From Longimicrobiales bacterium (GTDB lineage: Bacteria; Gemmatimonadota; Gemmatimonadetes; Longimicrobiales; Gaopeijiaceae): a stretch of DNA of 64,000 nucleotides. The stretch lies in contig CBDCNQ010000005.1 in assembly GCA_965219445.1 (NCBI GenBank), forward strand, positions 1,024,001 to 1,088,000. Direction: 5' to 3'. A program made the position numbers and the translations under genes. The notes under the pieces were generated by a model. The model saw nothing but the letters and a program-made list of their open reading frames with translations, did no database searches and was not told the origin of the DNA. Positions 5,045 through 11,501 of this stretch are shown here, in pieces; position 1 is the first letter of the stretch; every line of letters starts with the position of its first letter.

Positions 5045-5599
5045 CGGGTGAGAAGGACGAGTATTACGAGGTTCGCGCCACACTACCCGAGAGCCTCGCG
5101 CCCGAGGTGAGGGCGGCGCGGTTCTTGTACCTGAATCGGTGGTGCTTCAACGGGATCTACCGAACCAACAAGCTCGGCCGCTTCAACGTCCCCTTTGGTG
5201 GCAACCGCGTCGGACCCTCAGTCACTCGCGAGGATCCTCGTACGATTCTCGAAGCTAATCCGCCGGACGCTGCTGGTGCCCGGGGATTTATCAGAGACAC
5301 TGACCCATGTTGAACCGGGTGACTTCGTCTATCTCGACCCTCCCTACAGCATCCATGGCGTGAGAGTATTCAATGAGCATGTATTGCGTGGCTTTGGTGC
5401 ATCGGACCTTCAACGCCTGAGGCTCCATCTGGAGAACCTCCACTCGATGCAATGCCGATTCCTGGTGTCCTACGCGGATTGCGAAGAGGGTCGAGCCCTG
5501 GGCCAAGGGTTTAAGATCGACGTCGTGGAGGTTACGAGAAACGTTGGCGGCTTCCGCTCTAGGCGTCGAAAAGCCCGGGAGATCCTGATACACAACTAG
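5045..5599 (+). pseudogene. Dam/D12-class N6-adenine DNA methyltransferase, 5'-truncated and frameshifted
   Basis: AARFLYLNRWCFNGIYRTNKLGRFNVPFG in one frame and GDFVYLDPPY...FLVSY...EILI in another. Confidence 0.85.
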
Positions 5600-6792
5600 G
5601 CGGTATGCCCGCTATCGGAAACCATCATCGCCGTGATGTCGGGCCACTCCTCTTCCTTGCGGCGGTGAAGGATCCAATTGGTGCCATCGTGGTGAATCTG
5701 GATGTGCCAGTACGACCGTAGCTCGTCGGTCTGGGTTAGATTCATTCCGTCGAGCTGGCCCTCGATGAAGTCGACCGGGAAGAGAGCGATTTGATCCGGG
5801 GACCCGCAGCCGAAGGCTGCGAAGCCGCGACCCGCAGCCTTGAGTTTCTCAAGTTGGTGCGGATGAAAGGCAAACCAATACCCCGCGCCCTTCGGGTCCG
5901 CGTATTCCTTTGACACTGAGCAGGTGACCGTCAGACCTTGGTCCGAATCCGCGTAGGTGATTCGGGACTGTTTGGTCAGGTCAGCACCGAGGTACTGGCT
6001 GATGCGAGCCGCGCAGGCTCCGTTGAACGATACGGGCTTAGCTCGCTCCTCTCTCCCTCCTGCCTTGTCTTCCTCACCTTCATCGATCTCAGGTGGGGCC
6101 TCGTCGAGGATATCCTCGGTAGTAGAGAAGACCAGATCGATAATCTCGTCGACTCGCGTGTATTCGCGGGGAATCAGCAAGGCACGGATACGTGCTTCTG
6201 CGCCGGGATCATCGACCTCCTGCCGGATTTTCATTAGCCGGACGAGCGCGTCGATGCTGATGAGTCGGACGTCCCAAGCGTGCCGAGAACCTCTGATTTG
6301 CGCCTCGAGCTCACCGGTATCCTCCCGACCAACGATTATCAAAATGGAAGAGCGGTTCTCGACAATGCGACCGGATTTCACGAGCTCCTGGCGATACCCC
6401 GCAACGGTCTCGATCGGAAGACGATAGGCATCGGTTGTTTTGACCTCCGCGACCACCTCGTGGCCGTCGGGACCGGTCCAGATGCCGTCGTGACCGATAG
6501 CGTTCTTGGTACCCCGATAACGCCCCGGCTCGACGAGGAACCCCAACCTTCCGGCGATCTCGTTGACGATGTCCTGAAGCGCTAGGCCTGAGTCGGCGAA
6601 AGACCTGCTAAGGCAGTCGTCGGCATACCCAGCCAAGACCTCCGAAGGCACCCTTGCGAGGAACGCGCGAAACTCCGCCGGAGCAGAGTTGTTGTCGCCA
6701 AGCTTTCCATCGCCCGCAAAGCCGATGATCTGATCGACCCGTTTCTCTCTGATCTGCGCGGGGTTCTCCTTCCAGATTTCGTATAGCGACAT
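5596..6792 (-). CDS. Putative PD-(D/E)XK restriction-endonuclease-like protein
   Basis: Motif GHDGIW...AEVKTTD; convergent with the MTase fragment. Confidence 0.6.
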   Translation of the reverse strand: MSLYEIWKENPAQIREKRVDQIIGFAGDGKLGDNNSAPAEFRAFLARVPSEVLAGYADDCLSRSFADSGLALQDIVNEIAGRLGFLVEPGRYRGTKNAIGHDGIWTGPDGHEVVAEVKTTDAYRLPIETVAGYRQELVKSGRIVENRSSILIIVGREDTGELEAQIRGSRHAWDVRLISIDALVRLMKIRQEVDDPGAEARIRALLIPREYTRVDEIIDLVFSTTEDILDEAPPEIDEGEEDKAGGREERAKPVSFNGACAARISQYLGADLTKQSRITYADSDQGLTVTCSVSKEYADPKGAGYWFAFHPHQLEKLKAAGRGFAAFGCGSPDQIALFPVDFIEGQLDGMNLTQTDELRSYWHIQIHHDGTNWILHRRKEEEWPDITAMMVSDSGHTA

Positions 6793-6975
6793 CAGGTATC
6801 TCGAATCTTGAGGTAGGATCAAAGGATCATAGGGGCATGGCGACCGCTACCGGTACCGATCAGCAGCGAAGCAGCCCGAAGACGAAGAGGCGTTCTCCTC
6901 CGGGAGCGGGTGCGCGTTCATCATTATTCGCGCAAGCAAGCAACCCAACCCGTCCTACCCAAGAGGAGGATGCCC

Positions 6976-8031
6976 ATGGAGAGGTATATCGGACTCGACG
7001 CACACGCGTCGAGCTGCACGCTGGGGATTGTAGGCCCCAGCGGCAAGCGCTTGGGCTCGCAGGTGGTGGAGACGAACGCGCGGGCGCTGATCGAGGTGCT
7101 GCGAGGGATTCCGAGGAACCGGCACTTATGCCTGGAAGAAGGGACGCTGTCGGGGTGGCTGTACGAGGTGCTGAAGCCGCACGTGGAGGAGCTGACGGTG
7201 GCGGGGGTCGGCAAGAGCCGGGGCCCGAAGACCGACAAGCTGGACGCGTTTGCCCTGGCGGAGAAGCTGCGGATCGGATCACTGGAGACGACGGTCTACA
7301 AGAACCGGGGCCAGTTCAGGCGGCTGGGGGAACGGGCGAAGAGCTACGACTTCTTGGTCGGCGACACGGTGCGGGTGAAGAACCGGCTCAAGAGCGTGCT
7401 GCGCTCGAGAGGAGTGGCCTACGGCGCGGGGCGCTCGGTCTACTTAAAGCGCGACCGGGAGGAGTGGTTGGCCAAGCTGCCGGAAGCGAGCAGGACGACG
7501 GCCGGGTTGCTGTACGAGGAGCACGACGCACTCGTGGCATTGAGGGCGAAGGCCGAGAAGGCGTTGCTGGCGGAAGCACGCAAGCATCGAGAGTGGCATG
7601 TGCTGAAGACGTGCCCGGGTCTGGGTCCGATCCGGACGGCGGAGCTCCTGCCGGTGGTGGTGACGCCGTACCGGTTCCAGAGCCGGAGCAGGTTCTGGGC
7701 GTACTGCGGACTGGGCGTCGTGATGCGGAGCTCGTCGGACTGGGTGCGGGGTCCGGGTGGGCGGTGGGTAAGGGAACCGGTACAGCAGACGCGGGGGCTG
7801 AATCGGAACTTCAACCACACGCTGAAGCGTGTGTTCAAGGGCGCAGCGACGACGGTGATCGGTCGGGCCGAGGACGAGCCCTTGTACCGCCACTACGAGC
7901 GACTCCTGGAGGGGGGCACGAAGCCGAATCTGGCGAAGCTGACGATCGCGCGTCAGCTCGCCTCGATCGTGCTAGCGGTGTGGCGCACGGGCGAAGCGTA
8001 CGACCCCAAGAGACTGGAAGCGACGGAGTAA
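6976..8031 (+). CDS. IS110-family DEDD transposase/recombinase
   Basis: IGLDAH, LEEG, KTDKLD, CPGLGP, Ser-containing RSSS; GGAGG RBS; uninterrupted frame. Confidence 0.93.
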   Translation: MERYIGLDAHASSCTLGIVGPSGKRLGSQVVETNARALIEVLRGIPRNRHLCLEEGTLSGWLYEVLKPHVEELTVAGVGKSRGPKTDKLDAFALAEKLRIGSLETTVYKNRGQFRRLGERAKSYDFLVGDTVRVKNRLKSVLRSRGVAYGAGRSVYLKRDREEWLAKLPEASRTTAGLLYEEHDALVALRAKAEKALLAEARKHREWHVLKTCPGLGPIRTAELLPVVVTPYRFQSRSRFWAYCGLGVVMRSSSDWVRGPGGRWVREPVQQTRGLNRNFNHTLKRVFKGAATTVIGRAEDEPLYRHYERLLEGGTKPNLAKLTIARQLASIVLAVWRTGEAYDPKRLEATE

Positions 8032-8400
8032 ACCGGGCCGGGATCGGCGAGCGTGGGGTCGAAAGCGGTCACAACATGGGGTCCGACGAAACGGAAGCGA
8101 ACCGGTTACAGGGGACAGCATCCATACACACCGTGGGCCGGGGCAGAGAGCCCAAGCCCCCACTCAAAGGCTATGCACCCCTGGAGAGCCGAACGAAGCG
8201 ATGGGCCACAGAGTCCCAGATAGAAGGATGGTTCCCGCTCCAGAGCGGAGAACGCGACGGCTGTGAACGTCTTCCGGACTGCGATGCGGACCCTGCGAGC
8301 GCACCCCTCCCCACCCTGAGTCGTCGACCGGGCAATCCAAACCATGCGGACGCCGACGGTCAAAAAATGAGCCGACGGCGCGTGGGGAAGGTGCGTCTTG
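8032..8400 (+). ncRNA. Predicted bridge/seek RNA of the IS1111-type element
   Basis: Stem-internal-loop structures whose loop strands match the flanks (TACACACC 8125-8132, TCAAAGG 8164-8170) and the circle junction (ATAGAAGGAT 8220-8229); transcript ends unknown. Confidence 0.75.
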
Positions 8401-8636
8401 ACCGCCAGCCCCATAGAAGGGTGTGTAAAAAGAGAGGCGACGTACCTTTGCGCTGAGATGTAAACCAGCGAGCCCGGGTGAGCGCCCGGGGAAAGGGACG
8501 TCGCCTCATGAGAGAAGATATCGCGGGACCCCGGGGTGCGTCCAGCAGGCCGATATGGGAGACGCTCGAGGGGATGGTTAGGGAGAAGGCGCAGGAGTTC
8601 ATCCAACAGATCATGGAGGAGGAAGTCACGGAGTTG

Positions 8637-10939
<2,303 letters not shown>

Positions 10940-11501
10940 GGTGGGAGAAGTCAGAGGGCAGGAGTACGGTGGACTCGGCCGAGGGCTACCGCAACGGATA
11001 TGGCAAGCCGAGGCGGTTGGCGATGAGCTCGGGCACGATCACACTCCGACGCCCTCGGGTTCGGGGCGTCGAGGAGCGGTTCGAGAGTCGGGTGCTGCCG
11101 TTGTTCGCGAGGCGGACGAAGGAGCTGGGCGCTCTGCTTCCGGAGCTGTATCTGCACGGACTGGCGGAGGGAGACTTCGAGCTGGCGATGCGGGGACTGC
11201 TAGGCGAGGGGGCACCGCTGTCGAAGTCTTCGATTCAGCGGCTGCGGGCGGGATGGACGGCGGAGTTCGAGGAATGGAGCCAGCGTCGCCTGGAGGGCCG
11301 TGAGGTCGTCTACGTATGGGCGGACGGGATCTACGTGAAGGCAGGGTTGTCGATCCACCATTCTAGGCATTCCTCCCTCGCCGCCGAGGTCCACGTTGAA
11401 ACTCGGCGTGCCACCGTAGTGTCACGATGCCCAGGGCGGACAGAATAATGCTGTAGCGTTGCGGATCGACAACCCGTGTGTGCGACCGCATCGCCCCGGT
11501 C

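Follow-up and report, generated by a model that had tools for sequence, protein, structure and literature searches.

An IS110-family element was found within the left terminal inverted repeat (IRL) of an IS256-family insertion sequence in the window (the whole 64,000-nt stretch of Longimicrobiales bacterium contig CBDCNQ010000005.1 that was analyzed), and 23 of the 24 left ends of this element in the genome lie at one position, in one orientation, after the same 16-bp IRL tip. The element is very probably directed there by the guides in its 3′ RNA. In the proposed mechanism, two short guides in the 3′ RNA, matching both halves of the target, would direct the recombinase to the IRL, and the element would be copied out to a circle under RNA guidance and then inserted at the core, excision being the weaker of the two reactions. 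The copy-out, circle, and core insertion steps are drawn from the accessible portions of PMC11187229, PMC11208160, PMC13626964, and bioRxiv 10.1101/2025.10.25.684509. The IS256 copies would offer the element a self-multiplying landing site, so that no host gene need be broken.

The outer 15 bp of the IRL lie at 6810..6824 (plus strand, as for all features below unless stated otherwise), and the same tip was present at the 23 element copies and at five uninterrupted IS256 copies. The left half of the target, which ends in the putative AG core, lies within the IRL at 6819-6824, and copy comparison placed the right half at 8420..8427, which is the inner part of the IRL and runs into the TGTAAA motif. 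It is followed by the 5′ remnant of the host IS256 (8428..8636), comprising the leader and the transposase start at 8508, which is cut by a second IS110. The same IS256 continues at 10943..11346 (blastn to an intact copy; PF00872), and no further IS256 match was found past 11346 up to 11700. Directly downstream of the element, where the first-pass annotation had placed an IS256 transposase, the IS256 is indeed present, but only with its first ~225 nt, where the second IS110 together with an IS630 interrupts it. This damage to the host IS256 is independent of the element. The interrupting stretch (8637-10678, minus strand) contains the second IS110, which is frameshifted with PF01548 and PF02371 in separate frames, and the IS630-type transposase.

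The host family has a Mutator-type DDE transposase, as indicated by PF00872 on the window fragment and by full 410-aa frames behind other copies, and terminal inverted repeats, the sub-terminal TGTAAA, and 8-bp target duplications were all present. The TGTAAA motif and 8-bp target duplications are given for the IS256 family in the accessible text of PMC7780238. The predicted tip is precisely where uninterrupted copies start, and target duplications of 8-9 bp accompany them. Of the 28 true left tips, 19 could be paired with a right tip by an exact duplication of this length (about 0.03 expected), often at another IS256 copy; a 29th left tip candidate was unrelated to IS256 and was dropped. Duplications were often exchanged between distant IS256 copies on C2-C5, a sign of inter-copy rearrangement. 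On the other side of the tip, an ORF of ~400 aa (5596-6822, minus strand) starts a few bases outside the IS256, and a Pfam/NCBIfam search of it returned no match. Inspection by eye suggests a putative nuclease-like D...EVK motif in it.

The element spans 6825..8419 according to the junction comparison, with ends that are ambiguous over the AAGG common to both junctions. Removing 6826-8420, as originally proposed, yields the same empty site as removing 6825-8419; the latter agrees better with the junctions of relatives that have another target sequence next to the core (five G154 copies, L024, and L058), and we infer that the ends are 6825-8419 and that the core is AG. Comparison of the left end with the reverse complement of the right end revealed imperfect sub-terminal inverted repeats at 6832..6842 and 8403..8412, which match over 10 bp apart from a one-base insertion and leave extensions of about 8 and 7 nt, while relatives with a perfect 8-bp sub-terminal repeat have extensions of 4 and 4. 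The single gene described here, an open frame at 6976..8031, encodes a DEDD recombinase of 351 aa, recognized by its Pfam domains and by homologue alignment, with scores of 39.7 bits for PF01548 (cut-off 29) and 32.4 bits for PF02371 (cut-off 21.3), and with a match to NF033542 spanning the full recombinase at 112 bits, below the cut-off of 140. Residues D8, E54/E55, D87, D90, and S253 were invariant in 19/19 aligned homologues and by position would represent the catalytic D, E, D, D, and serine. The likeness of the protein to IS621 and ISCro4 was detected by profile search alone, with E values of 2e-11 and 2e-9, respectively, when the alignment profile was searched against the PDB (8wt6, 9t56), and the single protein (phmmer) had no match there. 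The noncoding stretch measures 388 nt 3′ of the gene versus about 150 nt 5′ of it. The nearest relatives were found in Longimicrobiales (Gemmatimonadota), and remoter ones in Myxococcota, Acidobacteriota, and others.

Every motif named in the first-pass annotation was found where it had been placed, and its placing of both target matches on opposite strands of one internal loop was borne out by the fold of 8032-8420 and by homologue covariation. The predicted target-binding stem-loop (8109..8183; folding and homologue alignment) has a 13 x 13 nt internal loop, with CAGGGG at 8109 and CCCCTG at 8178 as stem strands around it. The right-target guide TACACACC (8125..8132) is the reverse complement of 8420-8427, and the left-target guide (8164..8171) contains TCAAAGG at 8164-8170, identical to 6819-6825, followed by a C that matches the one opening normal left ends; the top-strand complement thus precedes the bottom-strand match in the RNA. 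The chance of both target matches in a 389-nt region of like composition was about 1e-4. A predicted donor-binding stem-loop, obtained from the homologue alignment fold, follows at 8186..8234, and its positions 8220-8226 equal the right end of the element at 8413-8419. While the single-sequence folding energy was unremarkable (z = -1.45 and -0.80), the alignment of 30 homologues returned both the target and the donor stem-loops, with compensatory changes in 16 of 30 pairs and 95% of cells paired versus 31-51% when the partners were slid as a control, figures that favor the two-loop structure since it was derived from the same alignment that scored it. An Rfam search of the element RNA gave nothing above chance and no family.

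The donor loop had also been said to equal the predicted circle junction over 10 nt. This holds for ATAGAAGGAT at 8220-8229 in the window copy, but the normal circle junction matches over 8 nt, because the normal left ends (23 of 24) contain a C that the window copy lacks after 6825; a 10-nt junction match as a family feature was accordingly rejected. On the right-donor side no clear guide was found; the opposite loop strand matched the reverse complement only partly, and the left ends hardly vary. The other 23 of the 24 left ends read ...AAAGG-CATCATAG, and the C was also seen in contigs from four of eight public runs (X1, X5, X6, and X14), with an assembly error as a possible alternative for the window copy. 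The predicted circle junction of normal copies would bring the -35-like box TTGACC (8398..8403) to 17 bp before a -10-like CATCAT, and the two would form a junction promoter, which the missing C would damage in the window copy. Since the left guide reads into the left-end C, the pairing there would also be damaged. With both the -10-like box and the left-guide extension affected, the window copy may move poorly while serving as a source of protein and RNA, and its earlier description as intact is doubtful. No circle-closing joint was found in the contigs of eight public runs, although contigs cannot show its absence, and the contigs of two RNA runs do not reach the noncoding region of the element and so have no bearing on expression.

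The right ends in this genome (n = 24) told the same story as the left ends, with 21 running into the inner IS256 inverted repeat, one into IS256 after a group II intron, one at an off-target site, and one in an internal tandem duplication. At the off-target copy (C2 336.7 kb), 9 nt of the left guide recur in the left flank, and the right flank matches the right guide at 6/8 positions, one base closer. The exact empty 14-bp target did not occur in this genome (0 sites). Five IRLs were uninterrupted, each with a different one-base change within the 14-bp site, and all 29 right IS256 inverted repeats, which have two mismatches in the left half of the target, were empty. The group II intron (1903 bp, YADD reverse transcriptase; G000 C4:1171669-1169767, minus strand), one of 13 genomic copies, sits in the inner IS256 inverted repeat 3 nt past the right junction of the element, nesting intron, element, and IS256, three mobile elements, in one inverted repeat. 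One-ended junctions of the element were also noted (G000 C5:1611125-1613470, L005, and L206), in which right ends were joined to element-internal sites or a non-IS256 left flank was combined with an IS256 right flank; they resemble the one-sided transfers described in the accessible parts of bioRxiv 10.1101/2025.10.25.684509 and 10.64898/2026.08.14.744561.

The IRL pattern was present in 26 of the 301 family genomes searched. In seven related genomes, 25 of 28 left junctions lay within an IS256 tip, the others being L153, L205, and L206, so that insertion at the loop-encoded site, expected from the first-pass annotation, was found well beyond this genome. Counting duplicate handles once, the numbers of filled tips, exact empty IRLs, and variant empty IRLs were 6/1/2 in G151, 2/0/1 in G152, 1/44/1 in G153, 5/0/10 in G154, 6/5/0 in G237, 4/1/0 in G199, and 1/5/1 in G155, where the one filled tip is a right inverted repeat and the guides are changed. 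In G153, the exact joined sequence occurred in 44 of 45 IRLs, and these 44 exact empty sites stand beside one element with an open transposase frame. Targeting of IS256 tips is general among carriers; saturation is not, since exact empty sites occur beside the element in G153, G237, G199, and G151. An IS110 of 40% identity occurs in at least 13 clustered copies in G085, a genome from the same genus, and a search there for the left end of the element and for this IRL pattern found neither.

The three off-target insertions (this genome, L153, and L205) lie at sites that resemble the guides rather than IS256, and these sites, as well as the L009 right-repeat junction, are one base shorter than the IRL site, which suggests that the right guide tolerates one base of slack. 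The element at L009:2850-4450 (G155) is 95% identical with both guides changed, and its left flank is the tip of the IS256 right inverted repeat (7/9 match), with a right flank that is not IS256. Two element variants occur within G199 (L201-L205). One, with a variant guide, occupies an altered IRL in three cases and an off-target site in a fourth, and the other lies in the common IRL; the changed guide base of the variant is not an exact match to the changed target base. A 3-base junction duplication at L144 indicates that imprecise junctions do occur.

At the locus itself, contigs of X3, X5, and X12 join 6700-6823 to an uninterrupted IS256 end, so that the IS256 was most likely in place before the element. 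Target position 6 is A in this empty allele where the reconstructed site has G, and the element may therefore have inserted here into a variant with one mismatch.

The consequence for IS256 can be considered in terms of its transposase. In ISCth4, an IS256 family member, the transposase binds the inverted repeat in two parts, at bp 7-11 and at bp 14-25, according to the accessible text of PMC7780238, and the insertion point of the element corresponds to bp 15/16 of the IRL. Insertion would part the IS256 tip from the inner transposase-binding site by 1.6 kb. Because both transposase-binding parts would be split from one another, copy-out of the IS256 would be blocked until the element excises, and we consider it reasonable to infer that a filled IRL disables IS256. 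A competing view with a minority chance of being right, which bears on this consequence alone and not on targeting, is that the element is a harmless, reversible parasite whose precise excision is frequent enough to leave IS256 mobile, as an unsuppressed landing pad. It would fit the low-frequency regeneration of the empty site by IS621 (accessible text of PMC13626964), the full 410-aa transposase retained by most filled IS256 copies, and the coexistence of the element with exact empty sites in four genomes. However, this genome has zero exact empty sites, the available accounts of ISEc11 and CazIS110-1 state that the empty site was not regenerated, and excision by IS621 is much weaker than insertion in the same part of PMC13626964.

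The empty ends of this genome were compared within a set of 17 near-identical IS256 copies, 12 of which equal the consensus. Two filled copies differ at three places elsewhere, and three empty ones differ by one change each, within the 14 bp. Overall, three of the five empty ends are hybrids of a left-junction prefix and a right-junction suffix, a form reached by 6 of 98 possible single edits (binomial probability about 0.002, computed post hoc), and are candidate excision scars. One hybrid is a plain homopolymer deletion for which an assembly error is possible, and the pattern does not extend to the remaining two empty ends. An arms race, in which the element freezes IS256, rare imprecise excision leaves working but immune ends with a one-base scar, and the element in turn re-aims its guides, as might be read from L009 at the right inverted repeat and the G199 variant in an altered IRL, is a speculative and on balance rather unlikely extension of these data. 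The general claim that variant IRLs are escape mutants was rejected in favor of mostly standing IS256 variation, since position-6 A-for-G variants are common in G261, G242, G097, G239, and G201, where the left end of the element was not found, and since the fifth empty end of this genome (GTGAGTA) is also present in G155.

The high occupancy could in principle be due to hitch-hiking, if a single entry of the element into an IS256 end, or a handful of them, had been followed by the spread of an IS256::IS110 composite, with the guide match nevertheless real. We regard this as improbable. In its favor, a single IS256 type with hardly any variation accounts for 14 of the filled hosts, and several composites have matching duplications of 8-9 bp on their two sides, although such duplications are expected equally if IS256 moved first. 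On the other hand, the 20 full-length element copies fall into 19 haplotypes with a mean pairwise difference of 14.9 nt, none of the 55 pairs of identical IS256 hosts carries identical elements, the single identical element pair sits in hosts of different leader types, at least three IS256 subtypes are filled, and the locus described here has an empty IS256 end in other runs. From the haplotype diversity, the absence of identical pairs, and the one haplotype in two leader types, the elements seem to have entered the IS256 copies one by one, by independent insertion rather than co-transposition, while mosaic element haplotypes could also reflect gene conversion or assembly.

Guide-directed insertion was also supported by covariation between guides and flanks across homologues. 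From 76 loci, 41 were parsed and 30 guide pairs were obtained, 19 with a left flank and 21 with a right flank, in a set that left out a roughly 40%-identity clade with another end type. The left guide matched its own left flank at 83 of 114 positions (-9..-4; n = 19) compared with a shuffled mean of 49, and the right guide matched its own right flank at 130 of 168 (n = 21) compared with a shuffled mean of 82, the right score being the best of three registers for real and shuffled pairs alike. Each score was reached in 0 of 20,000 shuffles, a figure that overstates independence since the homologues are related, and the result was the same after collapse to unique guides (n = 12 left, n = 20 right). 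The guides thus track their own flanks, and guide changes were matched by flank changes in many lineages, with the right-guide register shifting by one base between sites. In 22 homologues, 151 of 154 positions agreed between the 3′ strand of the donor loop and the right end of the same element, tracking four main end types; the shuffle test of this agreement (0/20,000) also included the window row, offset by one base. That the recombinase protein, or an IS256-related DNA structure or protein, picks the site, with the RNA match as a relic or helper, is highly improbable, for although the AG core and adjoining bases are nearly invariant across homologues and the G199 variant lies three times in an IRL that its changed guide fits no better, recombinases of ~80% identity use unrelated flanks that each follow their own loops, the off-target sites match guides and not IS256, and RNA guidance has been shown for ISEc11 and IS621 in the accessible parts of PMC11187229 and PMC13626964, respectively.

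Of 30 family loci that share the left end of this element, only 10 are in IS256 tips, the left flanks of the remaining 20 being different, and the IS256-matching guide therefore looks like a re-aiming within one sub-clade. The non-IS256 left flanks end in GGATAGG in 16 of the 20 cases; in flanks with this ending (L011, L013, L014, L022, and 16 of L157-L186), the sequence further out is unrelated.

The element is filed as an IS110-family element that is IS1111-like in its working. It has the broad features of the IS110 family, namely an N-terminal DEDD RuvC-like domain and a C-terminal Transposase_20 domain with catalytic residues, and its insertions are specific for site and orientation and leave no true target duplication. 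The 3′ noncoding region and the guide order agree with the strict IS1111 rule, as stated in the accessible text of PMC11187229. The IS1111 type first assigned to the element is not supported in the strict sense, as the 11-13-bp near-perfect sub-terminal inverted repeats with a 7-bp left and a 3-bp right extension are lacking, and the GL-P----S(T)G motif is replaced by GLGVVMRSSS, with no P and no G after the serine throughout the alignment. Four clade motifs of the recombinase did not occur among the ISfinder sequences supplied with PMC11187229, and the supplementary tree table of PMC11208160 already lists a close relative of the protein.

Several known systems invite comparison. ISEc11, ISKpn4, ISPst6, and ISPa11, the seekRNA elements, target a short linear site, attC ends, and REP sequences as described in the accessible text of PMC11187229, and unlike the elements presented there, the window element is without the near-perfect repeats of that geometry and has an evident second, donor-reading loop. 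It shares with IS621 and ISCro4 a RuvC-like DEDD domain and a serine Tnp domain, target and donor loops, and a putative 2-bp core (accessible parts of PMC11208160 and PMC13626964), whereas its RNA is 3′ and not 5′ of the gene, its guide order is reversed, and its core appears to be AG and not CT. The resemblance in habit is closest to elements that live in the ends of other transposons, as it has a DEDD recombinase, a long 3′ noncoding region, and one fixed position and orientation in the terminal repeat of another element in common with IS4321/IS5075. These last, in the work of Partridge and Hall from 2003, reportedly target the inverted repeats of the Tn21 family. They differ from the present case in that the host here is IS256, a Mutator-type element moving by copy-out, of which the left inverted repeat alone is used, and in that the window recombinase is distant, with GL-P----SG replaced, and its sub-terminal repeats are imperfect and otherwise spaced. 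An IS110 element targeting IS256 was not found in the literature searched, which was mostly open-access, so that an ISfinder/TnPedia note may exist, and the term IS256 did not turn up in the searchable supplements of PMC11187229, in the rows listed in those of PMC11208160, or in the accessible portion of bioRxiv 10.64898/2026.08.14.744561.

Since the mechanism is known and other elements have been described that target transposon ends, the surprise for a specialist is moderate. The value of the system lies in providing a natural, multi-copy read-out of bridge-RNA specificity, with 23 on-target insertions and one off-target insertion in one genome, in which five near-miss sites are empty and 29 two-mismatch decoys are ignored. 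The relatives add re-aimed guides and a one-base register shift, which together yield testable mismatch rules for a divergent clade of recombinases with a 3′ RNA. If a filled IRL does freeze IS256, an RNA-guided element would limit the spread of another transposon, and how IS blooms end would become directly testable.
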